Of a stretch of 64,000 bases of DNA, positions 7,413 to 62,139 are shown piece after piece; within the stretch, counting starts at the first letter, position 1, and the number at the start of each line of letters is the position of its first letter. This DNA is from Botryllus schlosseri. Taxonomy: Eukaryota. The stretch lies in contig CM119372.1 of the NCBI GenBank assembly GCA_051294905.1, positions 15,378,001 to 15,442,000 of the forward strand. Reading direction: 5' to 3'. A model generated the notes under the pieces. The model was not told the DNA's origin and searched no databases. It saw nothing but the letters and a program-made list of their open reading frames with translations. Both the position numbers and the translations under genes were made by a program.

Positions 7413-8335
7413 CAATTAAATAGTATATTCATATTGAAACAGGGTGACAAGTCAATCTCACTTTTATAGTCTTGACTCGAGTCAAGTCGAGTCATTTTCA
7501 ATTCACCAATGAGTCAAGTCCGAGTCCAAGTCAGCGAGCAGAGGGTCGAGTCCGAGTCATGGTATTATGACTCGAGTCCGAGTCCAAGTCATTGTGTTGA
7601 CTGCTCAGTTTCCAGTTGAAGTCTTGTTAAACCTACTTTTTACAACTCTACTTGGTGATATCGAATGGTTCGCATTGATAATATAAAAATTTTGCTCACT
7701 TTTAGCAATTTCTGGTCGCATTTTCAAGTACTCGTACCAGACGAAATCCCAATAGTGTGATTACTTTACTATTCTTCGAAATTACAATGAATTGTCGAGA
7801 CATATGACATGGTTCGATTCATGCGTAATGACTCGAGTCCAAGTCGAGTCAATACACAAATTGACTCGAGTCGAGTCGAGTCATTTCCGTATTTTCATAA
7901 AATGACTCGAGTCATCGGAAAATCGGGACTCGAGTCATTACAGCACTATATTGAAATGAACCGGAATATTTTCGGCTGACACTCGTCAGGGGTAATCGTC
8001 AGCAACTAGTAGAGAATTCAAAAGAACAGAGTATATCAACAATCATATCACAAAATATGATGTTACAAGCACCCTAAGCACGTCCCTAAATCAGCATATT
8101 CATTAGAACGCGCTCGGAGAAAAGCTCACCCTTGACTCATCCGCTCAAGATCAAAAGCCATAAATTCTGCAATTGGCAAACACTTGTTGGATAATCCCGC
8201 CCGATAATTCTGTGTCACGATTGTTGATATACGCTGTTCTTTTGAATTCGCTACTAGTTGCTGACGATTACTCCTGACGAGTGTCAGTCGAAAATATTCA
8301 ATTGTATATTGAAGTTCTGTACCTCCAAGAAGCTA
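7413..8335. mobile_element. Penelope-like element remnant: inverted pLTRs with hammerhead motifs around a GIY-YIG fragment
   Basis: Minus-strand pLTR at 7413-8062 (interrupted). The plus-strand frame 8076-8198 reads KHVPK…SAIGKHLLDNP, resembling a GIY-YIG C-terminus, with one stop. Plus-strand pLTR at 8213-8333 carries CTGACGA…GAAA. Confidence 0.7.
7440..7948. mobile_element. hAT-like MITE rich in GACTCGAGTC palindromes
   Basis: 8-bp TSD TATTGAAA (7432-39, 7949-56). A related copy lies at ~59170-59598. Confidence 0.8.
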
Positions 8336-8399
8336 TTCAAGTAGAAACATACATAGAAATTTCCCCTCGATCAGAGATAGTCGTTAGGGCCTATATACC

Positions 8400-11500: not shown

Positions 11501-12271
11501 ACTGCCCCCTTATTGAGCTCGACATATCTTTATCGCACGAAATCCAGTACTGAAAGCAGTTCATATCTATTTGCAGCAATTAGTAGAGTAGTTTTGTACG
11601 TACACTATTTCTACTTCGACAGTTTTGATTTAGAAATGCGAATATTGGCATACTTAATTTTGTGTAGCAAAAAGTAGGGAATCAGACCACCTTCATGAGA
11701 GGTTGAATCGGCAGATGAGCCCAGGTCCAGGCAGGCTGTATAGCTCAAATGTTTCCCTATACAGAGCACATTTGGATAGGTGAAAACAGACTAAAGCCTA
11801 TCACTGCACCATCGATGTCCTTGAATTGGCTCTTAAAAACTTATTAACGCGTACACTTTCTGTGATACAGTAGTAATTCGTAATTCGATTTTTATTACAA
11901 TTTCGTTCTAAACCTATGATTTGGTGTTACAGTGCTGCCTTCAAATACCGAAGTTTCTTACACTCCAGTGGAACCTTTGAAGGTGTTTGAGCATGGAGAA
12001 TTTGAAGAACGATTGATTGCTACCATCAAGACTGGGATTAAACTTGTCATTGCGAAGCAAATGTGCTATAGTAAGTATAAGCCCAGTTTATGAGGATGTT
12101 GTTATAAAATAAGTGTTGGTACTTGCTCATATCTACTTGAAAATAACACATTATCCTCGAGTACTTCCGTGTTCTATATTGGTCGTCGGTTATTTTTGCA
12201 TGGTTTTCGTCATCTGGAATAGTTTATAGTCTGGTGATTCCTCCTGCTCTATACTTACTGTAACTGTGCAT

Positions 12272-13911
12272 TAGGGTTGTCCATAATTTGGAAAATCTTA
12301 CAAATCCTCGGTTGTAATGTCTTATTCGATAGATTATTGATAAAAAACGACACTGAGCCTGAAAGAAGCTCACAGAAAGGCCGTTAAGATTTCGTGCAAA
12401 GCGTTTGAAAGTAGCTGCCGAAGAATGGGCGTGTCACCGACCATAGAACGGCGAGAAGACTAGTAATCAAGAAACCACGGCTCTTGATTGGATAATCGGC
12501 TATGCTTCAATGACCACGTCAGCAGCAGCTTGCTGATTAGGTGAACAAGGAGTCTGCTACTGGCGGCGATTCTGAAAGCGCATTGTATGTAGGTTGACAG
12601 ATAATGATTTAGGATTAATTCAAGGTATCTTGAGGTACGAAATACATGATGTACAAACAACAGCTGCTTCACAAAAACGTCTAAAGCATGACTGCTTCAT
12701 TGTGAAGGAAACCGCTGTAGCCTATATGCCTTGTTTTCAACGAGGGAAAGCATAGGCGCTTATGCAAGTGGCGACGGATTCCTAGTTTCAGAAATAATAT
12801 ATCATTATTGAATGCAAAGATAAAGCTTAACAATGACACTATAAGTTAGGTGATCTTATTGGGCTCAGGTTGCAGTACATAGTTGAAGTTTTGAATGCTT
12901 TAGCGATCGGCTGAATCAGACGGTTAGGCTTAGCACTCATCAGATGTTTGCAGCAAATTGAATTCACTTGTAAATGTTTTCAAAGTCCCTAATGATGTCG
13001 CAGAAACGAGGTTTAAATGCAAGCACAGGCCCTGCTTAATATGATATGCAAACTATGCTGGATACTATGCACTATGCAGCATTGTCTGTGTTTACCTTTA
13101 CACCCCTTTTCTGCGCGATTATTAAGGAATTTGACATATCATATCCAGCATATTATGTGCTTACTTTTACGCCTCTTTTCTGCGTCATCTTCAAGGACTC
13201 TGACAACACTTGCAAGTGAATACAGTTTGATGCAAGCATCTGACAAGTACCAAGCATAACCCGCTGATTCAGCCGACCCTTAGAGCTTTCAAAACTTCAA
13301 CTATGTACTACAACCTGAGCCCAATGAGATCACACAAACTATAGTGTCATTGTTAAGCTTTATCTTTGTATTCAATAATGATATATTATTTCTGAAACTA
13401 GGAATCCGTCGCCACTTGCATAAGCGCCTATGCTTTCCCTCGTTGAAAACAAGGCATATAGGCTACGGCGGTTTCTTTCACAATAAAGCAGTCATGCTTT
13501 AGACGTTTTTGTGAAGCAGCTGTTGTTTGTTCATCATGTATTTCGTACCTCAACATACCCTTAATCAATCCTAAATCATTATCTGTCAACCTACATACAA
13601 TGCGCTTTCAGAATCGCCGCCAGTAGCAGACTCCTTGTTCACCAAATCGACAAGCTGCTGCTGACGTGGTCATTGAAGCATAGCCGATTATCCAATCAAG
13701 AGCCGTGGTTTCTTGATTACTAGTCTTCTCGCCGTTCTATGGTCGGTGGCACGCCCATTCTTCGGCAGCTAGTTTCAAACGCTTTGCACGAAATCTTAAC
13801 GGCCTTTCTGTGAGCTTCTTTCAGGCTCAGTGTCGTTTTTCATCAATAATCTATCGAATAAGACATTACAACCGAGGATTTGTAAGATTTTCCAAATTAT
13901 GGACAACCCTA
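12272..13911. mobile_element. 1.64-kb near-complete palindromic hAT-like element
   Basis: Starts TAGGGTTGTCCATAATTTGG. The arms are reverse-complementary for over 650 bp. 8-bp TSD CTGTGCAT (12264-71, 13912-19). The empty site lies in arm B at ~21147-21154. Confidence 0.93.
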
Positions 13912-16342
13912 CTGTGCATCCTTTTGTTACAGGCCAAGGACGGGAATATAAGAAGTCTTACGCATCGGTAAGATTAAATTCTTTTATGTATTTTGTGATT
14001 TCCGACTTGCAGAAACAATTTGCATTCGATTTCAAAACATCTGACAAATCATAACTTATTAGGTGTCGGTAATGATCTTGAACGATTTTGGACGAAATTA
14101 TATATAAATTCTCATAACTAGGCTAATATGAATTCCATTGTTGTGATGTATGGATGTAATATTGCTATAATTTTGCCTTTCAGAAGCACAGCTCAAGGGA
14201 CTGTTATCACACACGTATGTATATTGTTGTTTTCGTGAGCTATTCATTTTGAAAAACGGAATCCGTAGTAATCTCCGTCCCCGGAATTGGTTGACGCAAA
14301 TTTAACTATTTCGACTTCCCTTACCACAGGTCTGAACATTGACATACCTAGCAATGTTCTGAAGTGCTCGGAAAGAATGCAGCTTCATGACTTCCTGAAA
14401 ACTTGCGACAAATGCAAGATGGGCGCACTCAAAGGATGGAGCATGTTATGGGACTATAACGCCTGGTTTTATCCCAGTATACCTGGCAGTACATGTAAGA
14501 TGATATCGGCGCAGTGGCTTCGAAATTGCCCTGATATTTTTTAATTCTATTTGTTTTATTACGAAACGCTGCACACTTTTTTGACCAAATATTTGGAATT
14601 TGGAATCAACTAATCGCATGAACAACATATGTTTGAATACCATTACGAATTGTGTAAATTCCTCGGATTTTGACTGTCCTACGTAACGCTATGTCGTAAT
14701 CGAAAAATAATAGAATAGAATGTTCTGCAAACGAAATATCGTATTTTAGTGTAATAATTGTTCCCTTTGTAAAATCTATGTATAATCTCAGGCAAAATCG
14801 TTCCTGATATAGACATCAAATCTGCGATAAAGAAAACCAAGTTATCTATTGACGAATATGCTGTCGTTACCGCTGCCAAAGTTATGAAAGGGTTGCACGA
14901 AGCGACAGTAACATGACTGTAAGTTTTACGCTGAAATTTCAATACTGAGATAACAATCTTATACAGAAGTGATCAAGGCAGTCGCTGTTGCTACTCAAGT
15001 AGAAGCAAAAGTATTGCAATAAAATTATGCTTAATTATAAATAAGTAGAGGTAGCTATTCTCAGCACAGCAAAACTGCTTCAAGTGTCTAAGAAGAAAAT
15101 GAAAGATTTGACTAGAACTCAATTAAGTAGGATTTAAAGGTAGATTTGGTTGAGGCGTTGCATACATTAAGAAGTAGTGTGAGTAGGCGTGTGTCGAAAT
15201 TGAAAGTTGCATCTTAGCGCCTAATTTAATCTGAATGAATTAATTGGAGACACCCAAGGCATTTTGGCTCATTTCCTACCTCACTATCGTAATCGTGTGG
15301 GGTCTTTTGAAATGATAACGATATTTGTAAAACTTAAAAACGCTCAAATCAGTTCTATTCTACCGGCAAATCATTATCGGTAACGTTGCTTCAATATCGT
15401 TCTCTTGTTTTTAGAATCGAAATTCATCTTCTAAGTGCAGCGGACGACGTTACCAATTTCACCTTATTTCTTTGTATTGCTATTTTGCCAAGTAATAAAA
15501 TGTATTAAAAAACTTGTTCAGCCCTGACGTAGCCAGAGTAATGAGTGTTACCAGGTGTTTTTTTGCTTATAGGAATTTTTTGCTGCTTGGACATTGCTGG
15601 GCTGTAGTGTGCCAGCTGATATATTTTGACGGCATAGGAAGTTATATCTTTTCCGTGGCATTAACGTTTATCAGATTAGCCGGTACCATTGCTGTTGTAT
15701 CTAAGTACCTTTACCGCATGCAGAGACTTGATGATTATCGGGATATGGGACTTTTCTAACGATATGCAGAGATTTGACGATTGACCCATCTGTACGGAAT
15801 AATCTTCTTGATTGGTACACGGATGTCCACGTTTATTCACTATAATCCTTGAAAAGAGCGCTTAAACCGAAGAGGGGGGGCCTGGGCGACCGCCCACCAC
15901 AAAAGCCACCACTGCGGGGAAGTAAACATGAGATTCTCTACTACCATGCTGTTGTTTCTTAAACTCCCATGAATCTTTATATTTCATACATTTGCACTGA
16001 ATTCGGAGTTCACATCGCACTGATTGCAGTCGCCGACTGAAACATACAAGCCATTATTTATTAGGCTACTTAACATGCGTTACCTTTCTTCGGATTTTGA
16101 CCCGTACTATACCCAAAACGTCGGCGTGTAGGGTAGGGTTACCATACGTCCTCTTTTGAGAGGATTTGTCCTCTTTTTTGAAAGTGTCCTTGGAGGACGC
16201 TCAAATACCTCTTATGAGATTTTGTCCCCTTTGAGAATTTTGGCTCAGCAAAATATTAATGTCATTTCAAAACACCACAGAACTGCGATACTATGAAAAG
16301 ATAGGAAGGTGTCGAAACGACCTGGAGTAGTTTCTGAAATCA

Positions 16343-18524
16343 CAGAGGTGGTTAGTAGAAGAAGGTAGTTAAGGAAGCTACTCAAGTAGAAGTAGAAGTA
16401 GCGACGAAAAAATCTACTCAAGTACCAGTAGAAGTACTTCTTACGTAAGCAACCCAAAACTACTTGAAGTAGAAGTAGAATTGACTGCAAATATACTCCA
16501 GTAAGAGAGAGAGAGATTTATTTCGTCAACCGATGGCGGCAAAATGAAAGTATAAATATGCAACAGACAAACAGTGCTTCGGTATCGGTATTGACTGGTA
16601 CCGGCGATATGATCATAAAGATCTTCGAGTCAACCGGTACCGGAGTAAATGGTTATTCAAAGAAAATAACGTCACAAACTATAACAACTAAAGAAAATAA
16701 TGTCATAAACTGACAACTGAACAGGGTAACAAAATATGTCATACAAAATGCAATATTCATGAAGCAGCAATATTAAGAGAAGATATCACAGTTACACAGA
16801 CCCAATGTATCAATATGCACAAGGAGCAAATATATGGGTTGCAGATTGGTATATTCAGAGTGGATAGTGTTCAGGTGCGACTAGTATTTACTTAGGAGAT
16901 AATCCAACATCCCTGCCTTAAATGAACGATAATTTGAGTCTTTTAAATGTGCTGGAATCTCTTTGTTCCATACATCAATACCTGCTCGTTTGAATGGAGG
17001 GAAACCTCTGTCAGAGTGGGACATGAATAAGTTGGCGTTCGTGACAGACCGTGTGCTATGACTATGAACATCACTGCAATATTGAAAATAGTGTTGCAGA
17101 GAGACGGGGACTTGCAGCTGATTGATTTTATACATCACTTTGGCCAGTTCAAAGATATAGATATCACTAATTCTGAGGATACGCAATTTTTTGTAATATG
17201 GATTAAGTCGACTATAGAGGGGTATTCTGGCAATTGCTCTTAGAGCTTTGTTCTGGATCACCTGCAGCTGGTTCAGTAGGGTTTTGGTAGCAGATCCCCA
17301 AACTATAATACCATACTGTAGGTGGGAATGAATGATAGAAAAATAAAGAGTGCGTAGAAAAGGTTTTGGAACTATTTGGTTAACCTTCCATAGTATACCA
17401 ATATTTCGTGAAACTTTTGCGAACTTTTGCAGTAAGTAAGTAGTTGTGAAAACGATCGTAATTCGTTCGCATGGACTGTCAAAAGCTGCAAATGGAGCTA
17501 CGCGGAAGCTGTAGAGAGCTTGATTCATATTGATGCATCCCAGGAGGTGTAAATTTTTGACAGAAATAAGCAGTCGTCCACATCATGGGATGTAAATGAT
17601 AGTACTATTATGGAAATGCGATACTAATCCTTTGTTTACTCGAACATCCCGTTTTAGAGAATATCGTGGCATGGCGCCCTTCCCCATATAATAAGGTCCC
17701 TAGTTCAGTCGAAGAGCAATACGGAGAAGTTGTGTCGGATACGGCTTTAACACTTTGCGCGATTAGTATACGCAAATTGAAAATATGGTAGATCGTAAAA
17801 GTGCCATATAGCGTAGGCCTAGCTTTATTTTCGGAAAATATAAGCATTCTCCAGACAAAAGAACTGAAACTATCATTAGAACTCAGCGTATAATACTCGT
17901 AATTGAAAGAAAAATACAAACACTACTTCTAAAAAGCGGAAAATATATTTCATGTCTTTTGTCCAGATAGTTTCAACGGTGGTCTGCTAAAACAGGTCTA
18001 ACGTTAAAAAAGTCAAAGTCTACTTTTCCAGATTAGGACACGTCATGGGCTGCTAGTTATAATGGGTAATTGCTAGATTGCGAAACGGTAGTTTCAAACA
18101 TTATGGGGGCCATGCTAACTGTGATGAAATATTTTATATAGGCTACAACACGGTGTGAACGGAACCACGCAATCTAAATTATGTTCAGCGATACTTTCGT
18201 TAAAACATATATTTGTCACTCCATATCTAGTACCTACTGTGCGCGAAGCGCAACAAAAATTCCGGATATTTCAATAATTTTACGAAAAATAAACGTTGGT
18301 ACTACGTGAAAGCAGCCCCGAAATTCCTTGGGCCATCTTTCTTATGTGGGGATTAAACTACTTCTACTTGAAAAACTGAAAATAGCGAAAAGTAAGTAAG
18401 TAGTTCACAAAATATTACGAAGTAGAAATAGCGAAAAAAATCTACTTGAGTAAGTACCAGAAGTAGATTAAGACTACTTGAGTACTTCGAAAAAGTAGAA
18501 GTACTTCGTTACTGACCACCTCTG
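16343..18524. mobile_element. hAT-like element with AAGTAG subterminal repeats
   Basis: TIR CAGAGGTGGT(T/C)AGTA at both ends. It interrupts a dispersed repeat whose other copies lie at ~5820, ~36900, ~39170 and ~61845. The TSD is degenerate. Confidence 0.7.
16506..17429 (-). mobile_element. 5'-truncated LINE (L2/Crack-like) 3' end
   Basis: Post-RT ORF2 region KVSRNIGIL…LYFSIIHSHLQYGIIVWG…LQVIQNKALRAI. The tail is AATAAA+(TC)n. Flanking duplication CAGTAAG at 16499-505 and 17430-36. Confidence 0.88.
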
Positions 18525-20120: not shown

Positions 20121-23100
20121 TCATGTTACTGTCGCTTCGTGCAACCCTTTCATAACTTTGGCAGCGGTAACGACAGCATATTCGTCAATAGATAACTTGG
20201 TTTTCTTTATCGCAGATTTGATGTCTATATCAGGGACAACTTTGCCTGAGAACATACATGGAGCATTTTACAAAGGGCACAATTATTACAATAGCAAAAT
20301 ATGCTATTCCGCTGGCAGATGATTTAATTCCATTGTTTTTCGATTACGACATAGCAAAACGACATAACGCTACGAAGGACAGTCAAAATCCTTTGAGGAA
20401 TTTACATAATTCGTAACAGTATTCATGTATCTGTTGGTCATACGCGTAGTTAATTCCAAATTCGAAATATACTCACTACTCAGGCAGCGTTCCACAATAA
20501 TGCTAATAGAATTAAGGGCAATTTTGATGCCACTGCACCGATGTCATCTTACATGTACTGCCAGGTATACTGGGATAAAACCAGGCGTTATAGTCCCATA
20601 ACATGCTCCATCCTTTGAGAGCGCCCATCTTGCATTTGTCGCAAGTTTTCAGGAAGTCATAAAGCTTCGTTCTTTCCGAGCATTTCAGAACATTGCTAGG
20701 TATGTCAATGTTCAGACCTGCGGTAAGGGAAGTTGAAATAGTTCAATTTGCGTCAAACAATTTCAGAGACGGAGATTGCTACAGATTCGGCTTTTCAAAA
20801 TGAATAGCTCACGAAAACAACAATATACGTACGTGTGTGATAATAGTCCCTTGAGCTGTGCTTCTGAAAGGCAAAATTATAACAATATTATAGCCATACG
20901 TTACAATAATGGAATTCATATTAGTTACAAGGATTTCTTCCCACGGATTTATAAGGATTTAAATATAATCTCGTCCAAATCGTTCAAGATCATTACCGAC
21001 ACTTGATAAGTTACGACTTGTGGCAGATGTTTCAAAATGGAGTGCAAATTGTTTCTGCAAGTCGAGAATCAAAAAATACATAGAAAAATGTGATCTTACC
21101 GATGCGTAAGACTTCTTATATTTTCTTCCTTGGCCTGTAACAAAGAGATGCACAGTTACAGTAAGTATAGAGCAGAAGAATCACCAGACTATAAACAATT
21201 TTAGATCACGAAAACCATGCAAATCGGTCCGACGAGCAATATAGAACACAGAAGTACTCGAGGATGAGTTGTTTTCAATTAAATATGAGCAAGTAACAAC
21301 ACTTATTTTCAAACAACGTCCTCATAAACTCGGCTTATACTTACTATACAACATTTGCTTCGCGATGACAAGTTTAATCCCAGTCTTGATGGTAGCAATC
21401 AATCGTTCTTCAAATTCTCCATGTTCAAACACCTTCAAAGGTTCCACTGCTGTGCAAGAGACTTCGGTATTTGAAGGCGGTACTGCAACATTGAATCACA
21501 GGTTTAGAACAAAATTGCACTAAAAAGGCTAAGGTCAAATTTGCCATACCACAGATAGTGTTCATATAAATAGGCTATAAAGGTAATGCTCTTGAAATGA
21601 GTTTCTAAAAGCCAATTCGAGGACCAAGATCTAGTTCAGTGGTTCACTAAGCGGGTAATTTCACTCCTGGGATTAATCAAAGGGTTGAAAAAGGGACAAA
21701 AATGTCAAGTGCTTTTATTTTGAGATGGTTGTGAAAATGAATTTTTGGTCGATGGACAACTAGACTTCGATGCTACAGTGATAGGCTTTAATTCATTTTC
21801 ACCACGTCAAATTTGGCATTAAAGCAATAAATTTGAACTACCCGATAAAACCTACCTGGGCCCATATCTGCCGAATCATTCTCTCATAAAGATAATTGGA
21901 TGGCCTACTTTTCGCTACACAAAATTAAACGTTCAAATAGTTGTATTTCTGCATCAAAATATTGATGTAGAATTAGCATACAAACAAAACTACTTGGCAA
22001 TGTGTTGCAAGTAGATAAAAAACTGCTGTTGAGCAGTACTCCAGAAAACGTAGATCTACTTCGATACTGATAAGTAGGGCGATTTTTTTTGACATGTCAA
22101 AAAAGTCAAAATTAGGTCAAAATTGTAGCGTTAGGTCAAAATTGTTTACAAAGTCAAACATTTTTTGACCTCTGAATTTCATTTGTATCGTAGATTTTGC
22201 GCTGTCGGTGAACTTATCACTTGATATTTTACAGCTTGTAGCCTACTTTATAGGCCTACCGTTGTAAACGACCCATCGTCTGCTCATTGTGAATCATAAA
22301 CGATCAAATGAAACAAATAGTGACATGGTTTTATGGTCAACGTATCGCAATATCTTAACTGAAGCAAGACTGCTTGGACATTGCATGATTCTTATATCAA
22401 GAAGCGCAAGCTGAAAAATTGTGATATAGACAACATTGTCAGAATGAAGCAACACAGTGTGTCACCAGCAGTGTGCACACAACTTCAGTGTTGTCAGCCA
22501 ACAACCGCTGCTGTTTAACGTTCTTTCTCCATTCTTGGCAAGCTACTTAGTAAGGACAAACACTTTCTACCCGAGAATGTAGGAAAGTAAGCTATCGTTC
22601 GTTCGTTGTACTACAACAAATTTTAATTATTTCCACCATAATACGTAATGTACCTACTGGAATTCTTCATAGGGCCAGATTTCGTTAAAATACTAGTTTT
22701 TTCATGGGCTTCTTGGAGGTACAGAACTTCAATATACAATTGAATAGTATATTCATATTGAAATGAACCCGGATATTTTCGGCTGACACTCGTCAGGGGT
22801 AATCGTCAGCAACTAGTAAAGAATTGGAAAGAACATGGTATATCAACAATCGTATCACAAAATATGATGTCACCAGCATGAAAGAGAGAGCGTTCAATGT
22901 ACTATTTTTAGGTGGTACACGTACTCCTTTTGTTGACAGAGTTTTGGTTGGTGTATTTTGATAAAAGTCACTCCAAGTGACACAAATGACGTCATGTTTT
23001 GTGATACGATTGTTGATATACCATGTTCTTTCCAATTCTCTACTAGTTGCTGACGATTACTCCTGACGAGTGTCAGCCGAAAATTTTCTGGTTCATTTCA

Positions 23101-26100
23101 ATATGAATATACTATTCAATAGTTTTTTCATGTAAAAATTTGCTAGTTTTTGTGCCCAAAACGTTTTTTCAGGCCAATCTACTTTGTAAGGACAGACAGT
23201 TCCAACCAGAAATGAAGATAAGTAGTACAATTTTGACATTATGTGCGAAAACACCTAATTTGCATACGTAAGGTCAAAATTTGGTCAAATTTCAGTTTTT
23301 TTAGGTCAAAAAAAAGTCAAAATTTAGATTTTTTAGGTCAAAATCTTCCGTTTTTTAGGTAAAAAAAAATCGCCCTACTGATAAGCGCTGGCTTTTAAGA
23401 GTTCGATGAAGACATGTTGAGTTCACTATCAATGCTGTAAGAAGTTTCAAGTACGTTGACCAGTTGATGAATGAATATATTAGAAAAAAATACAAAGTGT
23501 GGTTGCGGTACACCTCGACGACCCGCAAGTGATTTTTATGCAATTCAAGTTTATTATTGGAGGAGCAGTAATACCGCCAATCTAGTCTTTGGCGTTACAG
23601 CGCAAACCACAACTTACGGAGATCCTTGCTCCATTCCCAAGCCCGACGGGTGGAGTCTGGGTCTTGCGGCCTGAAACACTCTTTCATATTCTGACCCTCG
23701 CGTTTCTTCTTCGATCTAGAGTCTGCACACGAACAAAAATCGTAAGTCGGGAAAACTCTTTAAAAATCAACGCAGCGTCGAGTGCTCTTTCTCATCCACA
23801 ACACGACCATAAACAAACAGTGTCCCCCATGAACATTTATAATCTGTTTACTGTTAGGGAGAGATTAGAACAGCTAGATAATGCTACTAGTTTAATTAGA
23901 TTGATTAGAGCGAAATGCTGGTAATGTAATTCTAATCCAATTTCTGGTTTTCCTGAAAATGCTTCATGAGAACTGTATCGTGCGAATCGAGGCAAGCTTG
24001 CTGTACAGACTTTTGCCATTCTATACTGATGGGAATGACTCTGATTTGACATGAGCTGAACTTAATTCGAATTCCAAGTTTTCGCGAATTCAGTAATTCT
24101 AATTCTAATCTAATTTGGAAAAAACTATGTAGCTATAATACTAATTCTAATCTAGTTTCGAAAAGTTGAAAATTTTGTAGCTCTCTAACTCTGGTCTGGG
24201 TAGCGTAGGAGCATTCATTATTCCTACTTCAACTTTAATCCTATGATATCCAATCCACAAGCCCATAAGTATATAAACATGCACGACTGCACATGCATAC
24301 ATTGAGTTTCATAGAGAACACAGTTGACGGTCATACGAAGCACCATAAATTTTAAGATGCTCACGGTGAGACATGATTGGCTATCGGTTTTCGTGGATTA
24401 AAAAATACGCTAGACCCATAACACGTCCCAAAATCTCACCATCCGTAAGGCCAAGCCACTCCACCGGCACTTTGCTTCGTCTTTTCTGTTGCCGCATCAG
24501 CTTCTTTTCCATCCTGCGCAAAGATTGCTGAATCTCGACGTGCTTGGATTCCGTTTCCTCGTCCACTTTCGATTCTTTTTTCTCTCGCTTCTCTCTCTCT
24601 TTCCGATGCCGCGTCGCGGCCTTTTCGATTCTCTCCTTCCTTTCGCGTCGTTCTTTCTCGGCCTCTCTCTTTTCTTCGAGCTCCTTCTTCATCTCTTTTT
24701 CTCGCTTCCTTCTTTCTTTCCTCTCTTTTCTCTCCCGTTTCTTTTGCTCTTTCGCCTTCTCCTTTTCTATCTCTTGTTCCACTCTCCTTTTCTTTTTATC
24801 TTCCCTGTCCTGGGCGCGGAGAAATTCTTCCACTTTCCGCCGCCCAGCCTTCTTTTCCTCACGGTTCATTTTCTTTAGACGTCTTTGCTTTTTCTTCTCC
24901 AATTTTTCCTGATATTTCAAAAACTCCCTTTCCTCTTTCGTCTCAAGCGATTCGGCTGTTTTGGTGTGTTTGATTTTCTTGAGAGCTTTCTTCAGCGCCT
25001 TTTTCAAGTCCTTTCCGGACATGGACTCGTATTTTCTCTCATTTTCCTTCACATATTTATGGCTCGCCGTATTTTCTAATGCGTCGCCTTTCAACGACAA
25101 ATCACTTTGAGACTTCTGCAAAATCGAAAATACAGTTAATCGAAGACTAAAGCAAATGATCTCAGCAATGAAGTACTTCAACTTTTTCGGAGTACCTAAG
25201 TAGGTTTCATTAGTATCACCAAATCCTCGGATCATATATTGATGTTGATATTATTCTGCCGTTCTCTCAAATACCCTCACTACTATTTCATGATACTCAC
25301 ATAAACCGTCTTGCAATTGGTTTCCATTCTTTCAAATACTGGACCATACCTTCCTCTCTAAATTGAAAAAGAATATTGTTTGACAGAGCGAGCAACAAAT
25401 GACAGCAACATCTCGCATACCATCTTAGATTTAGCATCGATAATATCCTGTATTGTTATTGGTTTAGCCGGTTCAGGCTCACTCCAAGATAACTGGTCGT
25501 CGGTGTCGGCGTCTGTAGTAGTATCCTGTAAGAGAAGAAACAGATAAAGTCATGAACATCCATACTGTTAACCTTACTCCCGCGGTCGGCCTCCAGGCCA
25601 AATTTTAATGCATCAACCAAAAAGTTCATAAAACGCGAACAACAGGACTTGAACCGACGCCCAATATATCGCCGTGATCAGGAAATAGCAGCCTAACCAA
25701 CTGAGCTACTCGAAAGGCTCAAGAGAGAGAGGTGACGATGATATTGAAACAAGTCTACACGATTTCTCAAAAGTGAAAGAGAAATTTGTTTTTCGTTTTC
25801 ACGTGACGTGATACATAATCCTTTCCATGGTGAATGACCACGTGGTTGTCTTACATATCAATTTCAGCATTCAAACAAGACATTACTGACCTTGATACCT
25901 TTACGCAGTCGAGCGCACCGCGACTGGGAGGTTTTCGTTATACGCATTACTCACGGCCGCCACTGATTACGTCATCGCGATAGAGGCAACGCGCCTTGTA
26001 ATTTGTGTTTATTTGGCTTTGCCTGGTCCAGTTATATAAGTCCAAATCCATGTTACTGATCTTATAGATACTATTCAACGTACATAACTAACAAAATGTT

Positions 26101-47291: not shown

Positions 47292-47497
47292 GTAAACACA
47301 TTTACACATTCCACTCACAGTCACTGAGCATTATAAACCACGTTCAATTTAAGCATGTTAACCGTATAATATACTGAGGTGGCTTAAATAAAAAACTTTA
47401 GTCATGACCGCATTGTTTCATATTGATATTGTTATTACGGGGAAATTGAAGGTATCGTGCCGAGCAATGCTTAATTGCACACCGGTGTAGCCATTTA

Positions 47498-49500
47498 TCG
47501 CAATGCTAACAACCAAATCCAATTCGCCATCGGTCCAATAGGACTCGGTCTCAATCTGGTGGTCACGGCCTCGATGTCGATGTTGATGTCGATGTAGGAG
47601 ACAACACTCTTGCCATCGCAAAGGCAATGGCTGACGCCAATGCTAACAACCAAATCCAATTCGCCATCGGCCCAATAGGACTCGGTCTCAATCTGGTGGT
47701 CACGGCCTCGATGTCGATGTTGATGTCGATGTAGCAGACAACACTCTTGCCATCGCAAATGCTATGGCTGACGCCAATGCTAGCAACCAAATCCAATTCG
47801 CCATCGGCCCAATAGGACTCCGTCTACATCTGGTGGTCACGGCCTCGATGTCGATGTTGATGTCGATGTAGCAGACAACACTCTTGCCATCGCAAATGCA
47901 ATGGCTGACGCCAATGCTAACAACCAATCCAATTCGCCATCGGCCCAATAGGACTCGGTCTCAATCTGGTGGTCACGGCCTTGATGTCGATGTAGCAGAC
48001 AACAAACACTCTTGCCATCGCAAATGCTATGGCCGGCGCCAATGCTAACAACCAAATCCAATTCGCCATCGGCCCAATAGGACTAGGTCTCAATCTGGTG
48101 GTCACGGCCTCGATGTCGATGTAGCAGACAACACTCTTGCCATCGCAAATGCTATGGCCGACGCCAATGCTAACAACCAAATCCAATTCGCCATCGGCCC
48201 AATAGGACTAGGTCTCAATCTGGTGGTCACGGCCTCGATGTCGATGTTGATGTCGATGTAGCAGACAACACTCTTGTCATCGCAAAGGCAATGGCTGACG
48301 CCAATGCTAACAACCAAATCCAATTCGCCATCGGCCCAATAGGATTCGGTCTCAATCTGGTGGTCACGGCCTCGATGTCGATGTTGATGCCGATGTAGCA
48401 GACAACACTCTTGCCATCGCAAATGCTATGGCTGACGCCAATGCTAACAACCAAATCCAATTCGCCATCGGCCCAATAGGACTCGGTCTCAATCTGGTGG
48501 TCACGGCCTCGATGTCGATGTTGATGTCGATGTAGCAGACGACACTCTTGCCATCGCAAATGCTATGGCTGACGCCAATGCTAACAACCAAATCCAATTC
48601 GCCATCGGCCCAATAGGACTCGGTCTCAATCTGGTGGTCACGGCCGCGATGTCGATGTAGCAGACAACACTCTTGCCATCGCAAATGCTATGGCTGACGC
48701 CAATGCTAACAACCAAATCCAATTCGCCATCGGCCCAATAGGACTCGGTCTCAATCTGGTGGTCACGGCCACGATGTCGATGTCGATGTTGATGTCGATG
48801 TAGCAGACAACACTCTTGCCATCGCAAATGCTATGGCCGACGCCAATGCTAACAACCAAATCCAATTCGCCATCGGCCCAATGGGACTCGGTCTCAATCT
48901 GGTGGTCACGGCCTCGATGTCGATGTTGATGTCGATGTAGCAGACAACACTCTTGCCATCGCAAATGCAATGGCTGACGCCAATGCTAACAACCAAATCC
49001 AATTCGCCATCGGCCCAATAGGACTCGGTCTCAATCTGGTGGTCACGGCCTCGATGTCGATGTAGCAGACAACACTCTTGCCATCGCAAATGCTATGGCT
49101 GACGCCAATGCTAACAACCAAATCCAATTCGCCATCGGCCCAATAGGACTCGGTCTCAATCTGGTGGTCACGGCCACGATGTCGATGTCGATGTTGATGT
49201 CGATGTAGCAGACAACACTCTTGCCATCGCAAATGCTATGGCCGACGCCAATGCTAACAACCAAATCCAATTCGCCATCGGCCCAATAGGACTCGGTCTC
49301 AATCTGGTGGTCACGGCCTCGATGTCGATGTTGATGTCGATGTAGCAGACAACACTCTTGCCATCGCAAAGGCAATGGCTGACGCCAATGCTAACAACCA
49401 AATCCAATTCGCCATCGGCCCAATAGGACTCGGTCTCAATCTGGTGGTCACGGCCTCGATGTCGATGTAGCAGACAACACTCTTGCCATCGCAAGTGCTA
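47498..49500 (+). repeat. Tandem array of 15 near-identical units, mostly 125/137/143 bp, derived from a coding repeat
   Basis: The marker GGTCACGGCC occurs at 47561, 47698, 47835, 47971, 48100, 48225, 48362, 48499, 48636, 48761, 48904, 49041, 49166, 49309 and 49446. Length varies mainly by GATGTY hexamers. Confidence 0.97.
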
Positions 49501-50494
49501 TGGCCGACGCCAATGCTAACAACCAAATCCAATTCGCCATCGGCTCAATGGGACTCGGCGCCAATGTGGATGGTGATCATTCTGGCGGTCACCTCGTAGA
49601 AGTCGATCTAGCAGTCAACACACTTGCAATCGCTGACGCAATTGCTCATGCCAAAGCCAGCAACCAATTTCAATTCGCCATCGGCCCAATGGGACTCGGC
49701 GCCAACGTAGAAGGTGATCAATGATCATTCTGGCAGTCACGAAATCGATGTCGATGTAGAAAACAACATTTTTGCAATCGCTGTCGCTATTGCTCACGCC
49801 AAAGCCTACAACCAATTTCAATTCGCCATCGGCCCAATGGGACTCGGCGTCAATGTGGAAGGTGATCATTCTGGCTGTCACGGCGTCGATGTCGATGTAG
49901 AAGACAACACTCTTGCCTTTGATGACGCAATTGCTCACGCCGAAAGAAACGACCAATTCCAATTCGCCGTCGGCCCAATGGGACTCGACGTCAATGTGGA
50001 AGATGATCATTCTGGCGGTAACGGCGTCGATGTAGATGTAGAACAGTGGCTCCCAACGTGACTGATATCGTCCCCAGGGGGCGATTTGACGGTCTAGGGG
50101 GGCGAAAATAACGGAGGGGCGACAGGGGGGCGAAAACGGACGAAGGTGGTGATGCTATTGCTCACGACAACGCCAACAACAACGTCCAATTCGCCATGGG
50201 ACCAATGGGACTCGGCCTGAATGTAGATGGTGATCATTCTGGCGATCACGGCGTCAACGCAGACGTAGCAGACAACACTCCTGCCATCGCTGAAGCACAT
50301 GTCGCTAGCGGACTCGCAGTCGATGTGACCACCGACGGAGGTTAAAGGACAGTATGGCGACCTCTTCGCTGGTTTGAGCATGGGCGGAATCAACCTCAAT
50401 CTCGGAAACAACGCCGGTGCTAAAGCAATCGCAACCGGCGGACCTCACTACGGAAGCAGTGATGCTATTGCTCACGCCAACGCCAACAACAGTT
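49500..50494 (+). pseudogene. Disrupted repeat-protein coding sequence (141-bp / 47-aa units rich in D, V, A, N, G)
   Basis: Units such as DVDVENNIFAIAVAIAHAKAYNQFQFAIGPMGLGVNVEGDHSGCHG. It is broken by a 7-bp duplication at ~49720, a hAT-like end at 50044-50137 and a stop/frameshift at ~50343. Confidence 0.75.
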
Positions 50495-50691
50495 ACTGTG
50501 ATGAAATATGTGGTATAGGCGACAATGCGGTGTGAACGGAACCACGCATTCCGGTATCGAAATTATATTCATCGATAATTTCGGTAAAACATATTTGCCA
50601 CTCCATATCTACGGTGCGCGAAACGCAACGAAAATTCTGGGTATTACGTGACTTTTATGAAAATGAAATGTTGTTACTACGTGAAAACAGC

Positions 50692-51837: not shown

Positions 51838-53237
51838 CAGTGGTTCTCAACCTTTTTCGCTTCGCGGACCCCTTTTCATCGTCACAGACCCTCGCGGACC
51901 CCCTCAAGTTCTAGTTCAATTTTACCTCTATTATGGTGCAACAATCATCTGTCTTGTGCAAATATATGAACTGTGTGTAGGCTTGTGATAAACAGCAAAA
52001 TAATGCTTTTCTTCAAGATAACATCATACTATTTATGTTGAAATTGGTTGACTTTTATTATTTCAAAGCTAATTTTGCTGCTGTATTTCTTGAACTACGT
52101 GGTTGTGTTTTGAAAATCCGCGTCTTCGATTTGATACGAACGAGGAGTGCCGAAAACCATTTCCGCAAAGATAGGTGGAAGCTAATGCAATATTAACGCA
52201 TAACGCTTCCGACGATGTATGATCGCAACATTTATGGCACCAGAATGAATTAAGAAACACATATTTTGTGATCATATCACGTCCAGCATCTAGCGCAGGG
52301 CTTGCAGATGGTTTCTACCGTCAAAGTGAAATCCTAATCCAAAATTCGAGACAAATTTTATGCTCCAAATAATGGATCCACATTTTCCAACCAGAGAAAG
52401 ACTGTCATGAAACGACTTGTTCTGTTCGGGTTTACATAAATATATTTACGAGCAAACATTTTCGACCATGAACAAATGACCATTAACAAGACAAGGCTGC
52501 ATACCAATACAACTGGTGATTGAATTTCAGGGTTGGGGCGTAATGCTTTGATAGCAACGAAACACTCCTTGTTCATAAAGAAATCAGCCTGGTCGATAGG
52601 GCATTCGCACTAAGAATGCGCCAAATCTGATAGCCGAGCTTTGAGAGCAGGTGTATCAATTGTCCGATTTATGACGAGTGTCAGCCGAAAATATTCGGGT
52701 TCATTTCAATGTGAACATACTCTTCAATTGTATATTACAGTCCTGTACCTCCAAGAAGCAGTTCCTTGTATTGGGACAAATTATCAAAAACTCCGGAAAT
52801 TTTTTTTCAAACGACTGTTCAGTGCTCACTAATGTGATGAGACTGACAAATTCTAATGGAGGTTTCGCAGACATTACGAAGTCACCCTGATTGACGTTAC
52901 TATTTCCATATTTTTATTTTTTCCACAAACCCAAACAAAACGTCTCTAAACAGCAATATGTTTGTATCAGCAGATTATTGGAATATTGGCAATGAAAATG
53001 AGTTTCCACACTACGATAGTCCATGTCAAACGATTATTATGATCATAGCCTTTATAAAGGGTATTAAGGCTATGTTATGATGATATGAGTCACGAGGTTT
53101 TAGCAGTTGTGGTGCGAAACCGCCTCATGCTTTCTCAAAATAAAAAATAAAATAAAAATTAGGTTATCAACAATTTTAAAAATTTAGAGGCCTCGCGGAC
53201 CCCTAGGGGTCCGCGGACCCCCGGTTGAGAATCGCTG
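51838..53237 (-). mobile_element. hAT Buster/Charlie-type deletion derivative
   Basis: TIR CAG(T/C)G(G/A)TTCTCAACC; exact TSD GATTAGGA; minus-strand dimerisation-domain remnant SEAL…ASTYLCGNGF at ~52120-52215. Confidence 0.9.
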
Positions 53238-53441
53238 GATTAGGATATCAAAATTCCAAATCCGCTCATCTTTGCCGTGTAGCATTGCAAGTTCCGCGGT
53301 TCGCTCGTTTCGCCATTTAGAGTTGCCAGTTGCTGATTCTACGTCGCTTGCGCGCGCAGTTCCGGTTACCCGATACATATTTTGTGATACGATTGTTGAT
53401 ATACAATGTTCTTTCCAATTCTCTACTAGTTGCTGACGATT

Positions 53442-53475
53442 ACCCCTGACGAGTGTCAGCCGAAAATATTCGGGT
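53442..53475 (+). ncRNA. Minimal type I hammerhead ribozyme motif (Penelope-type)
   Basis: ACCC-CTGACGA-G-TGTCAGC-C-GAAA-ATAT-TC-GGGT: full catalytic core, stem I ACCC/GGGU, palindromic AUAU loop III, UC cleavage site. Confidence 0.8.
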
Positions 53476-53626
53476 TCATTTCAATATGAATATACTATTT
53501 AATGGTCATATTTTAGTAGCCTAGCCTAGCCATAATAACAAATAGTGATATGGTACTAAGTTCAAGTATAATGGTACGTAATAATACGCTGTTCTTTCGA
53601 ATTCTCTACTAGTTGCTAACGATTAC

Positions 53627-54865
53627 GGGTCAAGTGTAGAATACGGCCAGTGATCCCCATGACCATCACCGATCAATGTTTCACATGAACATGTCAAAAC
53701 TCATAGTGCTTCACATGAACACGTCAAAATAAATTGTTTTTATTTTGCCTGTGGAGAGTCGGATATTAGGGTTGCCGGAGGTGGGACATTAGGGTTGCCG
53801 GAGGTGGGAGATTAGGGTTAGGGGAGGTGGGATGTTAGGGTTGCCGGAGGTGGGATATTAGGGAAGGGGGATATTAGGGTTGCCGGAGGTGGAATATTAG
53901 GGTTGAGGGAGGTGGGATATTAGGGTTAGGGGAGGTGGGATGTTAGGGTTGCCGGAGGGGGGAGATTAGGGTTATATTAGGGTTGGGGGTATATTAGGGT
54001 AGCCGGAGGGGGGAGATTAGGGTTAGGGGTATGTTAGGGTTGGGGGTATATTAGGGTAGCCGGAGGGGCTGGGGTTAGGCCATCCCAAGATTAAGGTTGG
54101 GGTGATGGATATAGATCTCCTAACCCTAATATCCCCTCCCCCAACCCTAATATCCCACCTCCGGCCACCCTAATATCCCATCTCCCCTAACCCTAATATC
54201 CCACCTCCCCCAACCCTAATATTCCACCTCCGGCAACCCTAATATCCCATCTCCGGCAACCCTAATATCCCACCTACGGCAACCCTAATATCCCCTCCCC
54301 CAACCCTAATATCCCACCTCCGGCCACCCTAATATCCCACCTCCCCTAACCCTAATATCCCACCTCCCCCAACCCTAATATTCCACCTCCGGCAACCCTA
54401 ATATCCCATCTCCGGCAACCCTAATATCCCACCTCCGGCAACCCTAATATCCCACCTCCGGCCACCCTAATATCCCACCTTCCCCAACCCTAATATCCCA
54501 TCTCCGGCCACCCTAATATCCCCCTCCCCCAACCCTAATATCCCACCTCCGGCAATCCTAATATCCCCCTCCCCCAACCCTAATATCCCACAACCGGCAA
54601 CCCTAATATCCCACCTCCGGCAACCCTAATATCCCACCTCCGGCAACCCTAATATCCCACCTCCGGCAACCCTAATATTCCCAGCATCCCTGCTCCCCCA
54701 ACCCTAATAGCCCCTCCGACAACCCTAATATCCGTCAGTCCGTCACGCCACAGGAAAGAAAAACAATTTATTTTGATGTGTTCATGGGAAGCATTTGTTG
54801 GTGTAATGTGAAACAATGATCTGTGATGGTCATGGGGATCACTGGCCGTATTCTACACTTGACCC
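53627..54865. mobile_element. Foldback (Merlin-like?) element made of inverted TTAGGG-containing ~23-bp minisatellite
   Basis: TIR GGGTCAAGTGTAGAATACGGCCAGTGATCCCCATGACCATCAC; 8-bp TSD ACGATTAC. (ATATTAGGGTTGCCGGAGGTGGG)n is followed by its reverse complement. Confidence 0.9.
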
Positions 54866-54871
54866 ACGATT

Positions 54872-54905
54872 ACCCCTGACGAGTGTCAGCCGAAAATATT
54901 CGGGT
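54872..54905 (+). ncRNA. Minimal type I hammerhead ribozyme motif (second intact copy)
   Basis: Identical to 53442-53475. Confidence 0.8.
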
Positions 54906-55234
54906 TCATTTTAATATGAATATACTATTCAATTGTATACGTAATAAGTGTAGCCTACGTCCGTGTATATTGATGGCAAGCTTAAAAAATCCCACATCGG
55001 CTTACCGTTTATTTTTGAAATATATTATAATTCTCGTATAGATATGCTAGATCTATAAAATTACCAAAAATTCTGCGTTGTATGTATTGTGGTGGCACAA
55101 TTTCAACCTGAATGATTTTACCGCATCCTGGATTGTACAGCCCATGGTATGCAGCGCTGTTTCTTTGAGGGAGGAGCACCAGTATACTGTTCTCTTTATC
55201 ATCTTTCTTGATGTGATTGGCTGTAAGTTCACCC

Positions 55235-55783
55235 ATGGTAAAGAGAAGTATTGCAGACTCTTCAAGTTCACTGTTGCATGGAAAAGACAGACCGAAACAG
55301 AGTCGATATTTCACTCGTAGAAGTACACCAGTCAATCCGCATTTAGTCACAAAGAGATTGGCATGGATTCCCCCGAAATCGCCTTACAAGCTTATTCAAG
55401 AGACTTTGTTTCATGACCCATGGAAATTGCTTATTGCAACAATATTTTTAAATAAAACCTCTGCAACTCTAGCAATCCCTGTTTTATGGAAATTTCTTGA
55501 ACTGTATAGAACACCCGAATCCGTGCAGCCGAGCAGTCGTCATCATATAAGTGAATTACTACAACCACTGGGATTGAATGATTTACGTGCCAATACTATT
55601 GTTAAGTTCTCGAAAGAATACTTGAGCAAAGATTGGAAATATCCCATTGAACTCTACGGCATTGGAAAATATGGCAATGACTCGTATCGGATATTTTGCG
55701 TCAACGAATGGAAACACGTGAAGCCCCGAGACCATAAGTTGAATCTCTATCATGACTGGCTTAAAGACAATGCTCCATATTGA
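55235..55783 (+). CDS. MBD4: MBD4-type G:T/U mismatch DNA glycosylase (HhH-GPD domain only), intronless
   Basis: [32 protein letters not shown]…LQPLGL…[20 protein letters not shown]…[11 protein letters not shown]; in-frame stop at 55214-16 upstream of ATG 55235. Confidence 0.93.
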
Positions 55784-59000: not shown

Positions 59001-60729
59001 AACCTAAAGCCTAACCCAACCATAACTCCAACCCTAACCTACCCCTAACCCGTAATTTAACCGACATGCTCATGTGTCACATGCCAAATTGTTGCATGCC
59101 GAACTGTCGCATGCAGTAATGTCGAATGTCCACGGACCGGCAAGTGCAAGTAGTAGTGATTTTCAGGACGTGTCAAGCAAGGATTGTAACCAAGTCACAA
59201 GGTTCCTAGTCGCAAGTCAATTTCACTTTTATGGTTGTGACTGTAGTCATTTTCAATTCACCACCGTGTCTAGTCCAAGTTCAAGCAGGCGAGCAGAGAT
59301 TTGAGTCATATGACTCTAGTCCAAGTCATTGTGTTCACTGTTAGGTTTCGAGTTTGAATCTTGTTAAACCTACTTTTAACAAATCTACTTAAGGATATCG
59401 AATGTTTCGCATGCATAATATGCTAATTATCCTCACTTTTAACAGTTTCTGGTCATATTTCAAGTACCAATACTAATAGAAGAAATGCCAATAACATGGT
59501 ACCTTTACTATTCATCGATATTACAATGAAATGTCGGTGTTTGGTGTCCGATTTTCGAGTCATACCAAAAAATCGCGACTCGAGTCATTACAACCCTGTG
59601 TTGTAAAAACGATTGGTTGAAAACGTACTCAAATCAGTACTTTGAAAAATTAGATTGGGATAACATGCATATTGACGCCACTAATGACCGCGCAATTCTC
59701 AAAAATATATTCTGCTGCCATAATACATGGTCAATATCGCTAGTTGTTATGACTACTTGGCAAATCGAAAAAGGTAGTAGTCTGACTTGTACACTGTTGA
59801 AGTGGAAGTAGTCTAAACGTGGCTACTGTTCAAAGTAAACTCTAAATTTAATTACAACAAACGCATTTTGAATGTTATATTGGAAACTTCATTTCATAGT
59901 GTCTTTTTGACTCTAGATATTTACATGTGGTTCTATTGAAGTTTCTGCAAGGAGAAGCTCGCGAAGTCCTGTTAAAAACCACTAACTTGATTGTTAATAT
60001 TTGGCATCCTTGAATGAAATGCAAGTCGCTATTTACCATTACCATTGCCTCTATTATACTATTATAATAAGTGTCACTTATTTGCATTGTCCGAATTTAA
60101 CAAAGTTTGTTTAAAAAAATTCATAGCTTTTGCATAATAACTTGTCCGAAATGAGTTGTAGGCAACTTTAAACAATTTTTTATGGCACTTGCGCGCACCA
60201 TTATGACACACGCCCAAAGTAGACCATGAACTTTCAATTGTGACACCTACAAAAATATGTTCCAGACTTCTAAATACATTTAAAATTTCTTCTTTTGTTT
60301 CTCCAATTAATGGACAATTGCCCAACTTGGAATTGAGATATAAAATTCTAGAAACTCACCACGGACCGGTACCGATCCCCGGACCGGCGGTTGAAAGCCA
60401 CTGCATTAGACGACATTACAGTGTTTTCCATCTCAGATATGCCACCCTAAATTCATTTCGTTGGAGAGTCGATGTTGCTATTTCTTCTGGTGCTTTGAAA
60501 CGATTACTGGAGCCATCAATTGTAATGGAATTGGAAACAAGTGATGGCAAAGCGCAGCTTTTTGAGGTTGGTGTCATATTATATTACAAGTTCTCTTTTG
60601 CACATGTGTCTGCCTTTCAAACTCCAGGTCTCAAAGCAAGAATTCCACGACCTGAGATACTCTGTTGCAAATGTGCTGAAGCAGATGCAGCGGATGGAAA
60701 AGCGATCTGTTTTACAGATCAAGTCGTGA
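56025..60729 (+). CDS. COMMD5: COMM domain-containing protein 5; exons 56025-56142, 56664-56853, 56910-57002, 60437-60566, 60628-60729
   Basis: The spliced frame reads MAGKIERSNFLGSSMPME…LQLAIRQP…FRWRVDVAISSGALKRLLEPSIVMEL…FEVSKQEFHDLRYSVANVLKQM*. All junctions are GT-AG with compatible phases. Confidence 0.9.
57214..58740 (-). mobile_element. Decayed Chapaev3-like transposon in COMMD5 intron 3
   Basis: Minus-strand remnants KLNDL…, GLLEELGIPIYKSSEWQKSIDSSKRTIKC..RNGN; same terminus family (ACTGGTCAACACA) as 51776. Confidence 0.75.
58862..59135. repeat. Dispersed repeat with CAGCATG subrepeats and degenerate CCTAACC core
   Basis: A similar element with the core in the opposite orientation lies at ~4945-5125. 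Confidence 0.5.
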
Positions 60730-60870
60730 CTAAATCAGCTGTAGTTGCATTGCAGTGCTTGTGCAATATGTTATTTTATTTTGTAAGAATGAAAAATAAA
60801 TCTTTTGCGTAACAGTACTTACTTTTCATTCAGTGTGCGTGTATGCCTCTTTTTTACTGCGCCTATAAGC

Positions 60871-61842: not shown

Positions 61843-62139
61843 ACCTAGGCCAAGGTGGGTGTCTGATCTTAAAGACTACTCCAAGTTTTTTCGACACCTT
61901 CCCATCTTTTGATTGTATCGCAGTTTTGGGGTGCGTTGAAAAACTGACTGACTGACTGCGTTGCAAAATCTTGTCGCGGGCTGCGAGTTGTTGGCGCCTG
62001 GATGGGTTGTCGTGACAAAGTCACAAGCCAATCTCACTTTTATGGTTTGGAATCAGGTTGAGTCGAGTCGAGTCAGATTGAAACTACTCGATATGAAGAC
62101 GGAGATGACGAGGTGCCCCATAGAGCTTCTCTTCATTAA

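Follow-up and report, generated by a model that had tools for sequence, protein, structure and literature searches.

The 64-kb window (64,000 nucleotides of Botryllus schlosseri DNA, the whole stretch analyzed here) holds copies of a repeat that is best explained as the pseudo-LTR of an endonuclease-bearing Penelope-like element (PLE), with a pseudoknotted type I hammerhead ribozyme that would form its helix III as a dimer and cut before the AUG of the element's open reading frame (ORF); we put the probability of this reading at about 0.7. The core, the single G-C pair of helix II, the knot, the palindrome of helix III, stem I and the location between a stop and a start codon are each shown by comparison with related loci, and the hammerhead is very likely functional in the active parent PLE. 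Hammerheads in PLE pseudo-LTRs are already well known; what sets this motif apart is a covarying pseudoknot together with a helix II of one base pair. The role of hammerheads in PLEs is open, partly because the metazoan motifs tested cleave poorly and seem to be without tertiary contacts, and among PLE hammerheads an efficient one is most to be expected in a lineage that retains a covarying pseudoknot.

A strict scan for type I hammerheads on both strands of the window returned two sites only, at 53442-53475 and, duplicated letter for letter, at 54872-54905. Both have stem I (ACCC/GGGU, 4 bp), the core CUGACGA, the GAAA and the U-C step of cleavage, as an earlier note on this DNA had described, with C17 at 53471 and 54901, respectively; the sites thus read CUGANGA...GAAA...UH with A15.1-U16.1 and G10.1-C11.1, and stem I is open, with both of its innermost pairs changed on both sides in relatives. 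Since the same scan of 100 dinucleotide shuffles gave a mean of 0.16 matches with a maximum of 3, the motif count alone is modest evidence and homology has to decide. The type I topology, the predicted cut after C53471 and a dimer formed via a palindromic helix III, all proposed in that note, are supported by the alignment of relatives; the palindrome itself, given there as AUAU, is real and extends to six bases (AAUAUU, 53465-53470) that take in A15.1 and U16.1. The note had also counted two intact copies, which holds for 53442 but not for 54872, where the core is without its pseudoknot arm because a 1,239-bp insertion split the element that begins at 53584. The label of a "minimal" hammerhead had to be given up: helix II is 1 bp, A9 is not followed by an additional base, and a covarying pseudoknot joins loop II to the 5' flank of stem I. 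A monomer or dimer construct that starts at 53442 would omit the arm, because the arm lies at 53432-53438.

Two other readings of this segment were rejected. An upstream CTGACGA (53433-53439) was considered as the core and has neither stem I nor G10.1-C11.1; the arm as the 5' strand of a permuted helix II, pairing with C11.1, fails because every family has T just ahead of the arm and the G after A9 is invariant. An Rfam search of the window found no hammerhead family at E ≤ 1; its single match, to a microRNA in the minisatellite, is due to chance. Both the 1-bp helix II and the absent hairpin III probably depart from the Rfam hammerhead models. Upstream of the arm, a TATA-like box is followed by an initiator-like motif, the A of which (53428) lies 28 nt past the box; by comparison with the TATA and initiator consensus motifs, this segment is a putative promoter. 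The features are collected in Table 1.

Table 1. Features of the PLE repeat in the window (positions counted from the first letter of the window).
Feature	Position	Strand	Remark
Pseudo-LTR copy of PLE, 5'-truncated	53376..53512	+	sole window copy with all ribozyme parts intact
TATA-like box (53400-53406) and initiator-like CTAGTT (53426-53431)	53400..53431	+	putative element promoter
Pseudoknot arm GCUGAC(G), partner of loop II	53432..53438	+	covariation
Stem I, 5' strand	53442..53445	+	4 bp with 3' strand
Catalytic core C3-A9, CUGACGA	53446..53452	+	sequence
Helix II, one G10.1-C11.1 pair (53453-53461), 7-nt loop (53454-53460)	53453..53461	+	alignment
G12-A14, then self-complementary helix III hexamer (53465-53470)	53462..53470	+	AAUAUU here
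C17, predicted to be cut on its 3' side (after 53471), then 3' strand of stem I	53471..53475	+	sequence
Start codon of PLE ORF, 14 nt past predicted cut	53486..53488	+	N-terminus matches
Second pseudo-LTR copy, 5' half; arm carries one change	53584..53626	+	BLAST
Insertion, 1,239 bp, non-coding, long terminal inverted repeats, inner 23-bp tandem arrays	53627..54865	.	8-bp target duplication
Second copy, 3' half; lacks the arm but has an intact core, palindrome, stem I and AUG	54866..54939	+	BLAST
Inverted pseudo-LTR copy, G1.1 changed	7949..8071	-	C3 at 7989; resumes at 7439-7412 past 509-bp insertion
Frameshifted GIY-YIG fragment	8076..8198	+	matches P0001 in two frames over 8099-8198, one with 17 of 18 residues identical, the second with 64%
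Pseudo-LTR copy; deletion after C17 removes stem I 3' strand and AUG	8200..8343	+	C3 at 8274
3' UTR, hammerhead (C3 at 22796), AUG at 22756, 49-nt tail into ORF	22708..22893	-	U16.1 changed to C at 22772
Last 24 codons of PLE protein (22968-22897)	22894..22968	-	23 of 24 identical to P0001
Inverted pseudo-LTR copy, same insertion as 22796(-)	22987..23123	+	C3 at 23063; stem I and palindrome changes
PLE ORF, fragment of N-terminal part	52523..52648	-	P0002 residues 223-264, 60% identical, one stop
Pseudo-LTR piece truncated at U4, with tail	52672..52759	+	arm and stem I 5' strand absent; AUG changed to GUG

Loop II is the exact complement of GCUGAC(G), located 5' of stem I; in the window, 53432-53437 pair with 53455-53460 (6-nt arm, 7-nt loop). 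Relatives were taken from the best 80 of 179 loci that encode related PLE proteins, most of the 80 coming from a few assemblies, and a core-like pattern was found within 300 nt past the endonuclease end in 49 of 67, a few of these being false matches at the stop codon. The knot is present in all eight sequences that were aligned, spread over five arm types, with arm and loop reading UCUGAC/GUCAGA in the group of L001, L004 and L008, UGACGC/GCGUCA in L010, UCCAGU/GCUGGA in L011 and UCUAGC/GCUAGA in L012; endonuclease-region identity among the five arm types is 46-56%, but 72% between L011 and L012. In this alignment, the eight rows of which represent only five independent arm types and also served to derive the structure, 99% of cells pair, and changes on both sides are seen at 8 of 13 pairs; the knot, with 7 pairs, contributes 5 of these. 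Covariation scores 0.61, compared to 0.215 for shuffled alignments (0 of 500 reach 0.61) and at most 0.083 when the partners are slid. Each of the five arm types pairs 6/6 with its own loop (chance 0.5-0.9% each), whereas non-matching combinations of arm and loop give 2-5 pairs, except the L012 arm with the L011 loop, which reaches 6/6 with wobble. Among 120 unrelated viral pattern matches, 6/6 pairing occurred in five when G-U was allowed and in none with Watson-Crick pairs only, and none of these loose-pattern matches in viral contigs, which were used as controls, combined knot, stem I and palindrome. The arm-loop II pairing is shown by this covariation.

With a covariance model built from the eight sequences, 62 of the 80 related loci, 7 of which had been used for training, scored at least 58 bits, and none of 80 viral control loci exceeded 22.6 bits. 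Invariant in the eight sequences are U4, G5, A6, A9, G10.1, G12-A15.2 and U16.1, and N17 is never G. The helix III palindromes covary in the same alignment, from AAUAUU in the window to AAGCUU and AACGUU in relatives, which supports a dimer. Core variation inside one knotted lineage is seen in the L004-type family, represented at position 1969 of L004, where U3 opposite G8 and U at position 17 each occur in 30 of 32 copies, and in L001, which has U3 with A8. At 275-301 of L008, the triplet that forms the ORF's ATG in sister copies is changed and helix II is a G-U pair; this is probably a decayed copy.

The expectation in the earlier note that core bases would be better conserved than their flanks was borne out in one sample and not in another. 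In 32 copies of the L004-type family, mismatch to the majority was 2.6% at structured positions versus 11.7% in the flanks, a contrast favored by the selection of rows for their resemblance to the structured segment (of 68 matches with 47 distinct rows, 32 were kept, by gap-free flanks); the 4-nt linker between arm and stem I differed at 10% in this family. In the four fuller window copies, by contrast, the motif (2.8% differing) is no better kept than the flank (3.4%). The window copies are truncated, neutrally decaying insertions; any importance of the ribozyme lies with the active parent rather than with these loci.

The origin of the repeat from a Penelope-type element, which had been proposed from the letters alone, is supported by ORF fragments, by a stop codon 98 nt upstream and an AUG 14 nt downstream of the motif, and by inverted pairs of copies. 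The GIY-YIG-like fragment at 8076-8198 that had been cited in its support is real but frameshifted, and its 41 residues are not detected by Pfam; it gave one weak protein match (P0001, E 0.39), a partial protein with a terminal GIY-YIG domain that is near-identical in peptides to the window fragments and that led, when used as a query, to 24 longer reverse transcriptase (RT)-bearing proteins. Three ORF fragments of one PLE family lie within the window. The GIY-YIG stop codon precedes C3 of the 22796(-) copy by 98 nt, and this longer copy reads, from its AUG at 22756(-), MNILFNCILKFCTSKK, in agreement with P0002 and P0008 at their N-termini; because the frame that opens 14 nt past the cut matches PLE N-termini, the motif lies at the junction of a 3' UTR and the next ORF start. 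The pseudo-LTR location and the palindromic 15.2-16.2 segment of minimal PLE hammerheads were both found. In L011 and L012, the same motif precedes intact RT ORFs of 839 and 840 aa, respectively.

A single ORF with an RT that carries the DKG motif and with GIY-YIG at the C terminus is found in the relatives P0002, L011 and L012 and in fragments in the window, the GIY-YIG being just below the Pfam cut-off in P0002 and not reported by Pfam for L011 and L012. The CX2-5CxxC linker zinc finger is absent in L011 and L012, and the CCHH-type residues of the endonuclease (CxC, H, H) are conserved in the alignments; both features are used for the Penelope/Poseidon type in the available part of PMC8557442. 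By domain layout, the element is assigned to the EN+ PLEs of Penelope/Poseidon type. The inverted pairs 7989(-)/8274(+) and 22796(-)/23063(+) are 5'-truncated insertions with an inverted pseudo-LTR, and the 3' ends of copies fall into two groups within the ORF, around +21 to +27 and around +49 to +58; an inverted 5' pseudo-LTR and an optional tail of 30-40 bp are among the PLE features described in the accessible parts of PMC8557442 and PMC11167929. A non-LTR retrozyme, which would consist of non-coding units in head-to-tail tandem with one hammerhead per unit, was rejected as an explanation: the copies form no tandem array but are scattered or inverted and are associated with ORF fragments. 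No relatives of the element were found in the viral contigs and prokaryote genomes searched, and a structure search found no solved PLE structure.

With the arm 7-9 nt before the core, the knot helix could stack on the single G-C pair, where it would stand in for the missing helix II and keep stems I and II next to each other, presumably with a gain in speed. The helix III hexamer would be stable only between two copies, e.g., the 5' and 3' pseudo-LTRs of one tandem transcript, and published PLE work suggests that the element's own protein perhaps aids the dimer. The cut just ahead of the ORF AUG would then trim the transcript to unit length and drop the upstream leader. Predicted folding energies illustrate what such a ribozyme has to overcome: the lowest-energy fold of the window sequence, at -10.5 kcal/mol, consists of two competing hairpins, and in one of them the core is paired with loop II, while the active monomer is predicted at +5.2 and the dimer without the knot at -1.0, to which the knot duplex would add about -9.6 before loop costs. 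By analogy with a lizard element, help from the protein in folding is plausible. A bolder proposal, which we consider doubtful, is that the 1-bp helix II, a knot at the 5' end of the transcript and a dimer-only helix III are a new, lineage-wide design, a fast dimer-gated switch that would remove the capped leader and so decide between translation and use as template.

A related possibility, to be taken as tentative and able to coexist with the best explanation, concerns translation. If the RNA starts 2-4 nt before the arm, the ribozyme would be the first ~45 nt of a capped mRNA, and the cut would therefore take off the cap just ahead of the AUG, 3-52 nt before it, with either feedback shut-off once protein builds up or cap-independent translation of read-through transcripts as the outcome. 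Suitably spaced TATA-like and initiator-like motifs precede the arm both in the window and in 6 of the 9 related loci shown, with TATAAA-type boxes ~30-36 nt before the arm in L001, L002, L004, L008, L010 and L077 and CCAAT boxes in several, but these motifs were judged by eye, and there is no clear box in L011, L012 and L024; moreover, a pyrimidine run with AG at 53408-53429 may just as well serve as a splice acceptor, like that of Drosophila Penelope. The distance from cut to AUG, 14 nt in the window, is shorter in the L001/L004 group (3-4 nt) and longer in L010-L012 (41-52 nt). Precedents that favor such a switch are the lizard PLE hammerhead, which cuts only with its protein added according to the available part of PMC11167929, and viral hammerheads that cut a few bases before a start codon and aid cap-independent translation (PMC13725137).

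It is unlikely, and more so than a role in translation, that the fold is kept for protein binding or for positioning the priming of reverse transcription, with cleavage slow or dispensable. The ends of all window copies lie past the cut, at about +21 to +58 of the ORF, so that their templates were uncut at the 3' ribozyme or circular; an uncut template would suit a binding role, but a circular one would yield the same copy ends. The U3-G8 core fixed in a large related family and the dominance of rival hairpins in the predicted fold also point toward binding or priming, as do the ribozyme mutants of the lizard PLE, which left insertion in vitro unaffected, and the absence of RNA-seq reads ending at its site (both from the accessible part of PMC11167929). 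Against this, the invariant core residues, an N17 that is never G and the covariation of the palindrome are what catalysis and dimer formation would demand. Finally, an ordinary minimal PLE hammerhead, whose arm-loop match arose by chance or by local duplication of the core heptamer, is largely refuted already and highly improbable: the window arm does overlap a second CTGACGA, a copy of the core heptamer, and only five independent arm types were sampled, but the arms of L010, L011 and L012 are unlike the core and still pair 6/6 with their own changed loops, and the alignment control and the viral controls fall far short.

The pseudoknotted PLE hammerhead favored here agrees with the minimal PLE hammerheads of Cervera and De la Pena 2014 (PMC4209133), as far as the available part of that paper describes them, in type I topology, pseudo-LTR location, palindromic helix III and G10.1-C11.1, as well as in a short stem I (4-5 bp), predicted dimer action and occurrence as single or opposite-strand copies 100-700 bp apart; a UUGAAGA core also occurs in its alignment (Saccoglossus 1). 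Helix II in the available part of the same paper is long, however (7-8 bp in Schistosoma and at least 3 bp in every row of Fig. S3), and a conserved extra base follows A9, whereas here there is none, helix II is 1 bp in 8 of 8 aligned sequences and loop II is knotted. PLE hammerheads are usually without tertiary contacts according to the accessible text of a review (PMC6155905), and helix III is formed between two copies in other PLE motifs (PMC4209133, PMC6765202, each as far as available).

For the knot itself, the counterpart lies in the work of Perreault et al. 2011 (PMC3088659), where, in the part available, a Watson-Crick pseudoknot joins the regions of stems I and II and stem II can be a single pair. 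The 1-bp ribozyme of that study, in which loop I pairs with the stem II tail, cleaved at >1.2 per min, and disruption of the knot cost it its activity; it is of type II and metagenomic, and pseudoknots and a 1-bp stem II are known there mainly from prokaryotic hammerheads, whereas the motif described here is of type I, eukaryotic, retroelement-borne and, by prediction, dependent on a dimer. Like the lizard element Anolis Poseidon (Frangieh et al. 2024, PMC11167929, in its accessible part), our motif is a hammerhead at the junction of pseudo-LTR and ORF, with a tail inside the ORF start and with GIY-YIG at the C terminus; the cut in Anolis Poseidon is 26 nt downstream of the start codon, whereas here it is upstream.

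Because the motif, found in at least 62 of 80 related loci, is missed by Rfam and by descriptors that call for a helix II of several base pairs, some PLE families that have been scored as hammerhead-less may carry the knotted form. Lünse, Weinberg and Breaker reportedly described ~150,000 small dimeric PLE hammerhead variants in 2017. We found no report of a knotted PLE hammerhead in the literature covered, a scope that excludes this survey, and there is about one chance in three that the survey covers the knotted 1-bp form. As cited in the available part of PMC6765202, the variants of Lünse, Weinberg and Breaker 2017 resemble our motif in being PLE-associated, with a diminished helix III and dimer cleavage. 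The available part of a 2026 retrozyme preprint likewise contains no report of a knot with a 1-bp helix II in PLEs.

BLAST within the window recovered seven motif-bearing copies and one further upstream piece. The five degenerate copies listed in the earlier note all exist, with C3 at 7989(-), 8274(+), 22796(-) and 23063(+) and a fifth copy, 52671(+), that is without C3; they are 87-97% identical to the copy at 53376-53512 over aligned parts. The piece at 53584-53626 had been overlooked. The 1,239-bp insertion that follows it is flanked by an 8-bp target duplication (53619-53626 and 54866-54873); its inverted repeats of ~170 bp are 80% alike (97% over the outer 60 bp), its 23-bp arrays are inverted and contain TTAGGG-like words, and it looks like a hAT-type non-autonomous or foldback element. 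A further insertion of 509 bp (7440-7948) splits the 7989(-) copy at its start codon, with an 8-bp duplication (7432-7439 and 7949-7956) and relatives at about 59213-59606 and 62020-62075; insertions with 8-bp duplications thus lie within 40 nt of the cut site in 2 of the 8 pseudo-LTR pieces.

All sampled words of the repeat were present in 20 sequencing runs of one organism. Four runs aligned to 22640-23180 at 85% likeness gave 2,086, 6,717 and 814 contigs and 13,886 single-cell RNA reads; coverage was far deeper on the pseudo-LTR than on the endonuclease end, a depth that is not a copy number. Among the variant places listed (40 of 192), U16.1 at 22772 is present in about 88% of RNA reads (3,046/3,427 and 858/990), so that the change of this base is particular to the 22796 copy. 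RNA strands are skewed about 3:1 over the 22796 copy and in the opposite direction over the inverted copy, the sense strand depending on library convention. No pile-up of read starts or ends was seen at the cut site or anywhere else in the 13,886 single-cell RNA reads, a library type that may not show one.

Several features of the window lie outside the repeat. A large nested inverted segmental duplication spans 395-37574, with many arm pairs of 140-440 nt (82-96% identical) between ~0.4-14.9 kb and 20-37.6 kb and, in addition, an inverted pair of 780 nt at 12269-13914; it includes two Lys/Glu-rich charged open frames at 10563-11273(+) and 24381-25250(-). A 233-codon frame at 16881-17582(-) resembles, by eye, the C-terminal end of a non-LTR retrotransposon protein and has no Pfam match. 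At 47364-50535, a unit of 137 bp, with variants of 125, 141 and 143 bp, is repeated ~18 times in an array whose GC content is high for the window and in which one frame per unit is stop-free and acidic/Ala/Asn-rich, the period not being a multiple of three. A COMM-domain exon (Pfam PF07258, E 3.7e-9) lies at 60207-60812(+). At 55217-55783(+), the window encodes an MBD4-like glycosylase domain without interruption (E 8e-69 against MBD4 chains of solved structure), and the 54872 hammerhead core lies ~310 nt upstream of it on the same strand.
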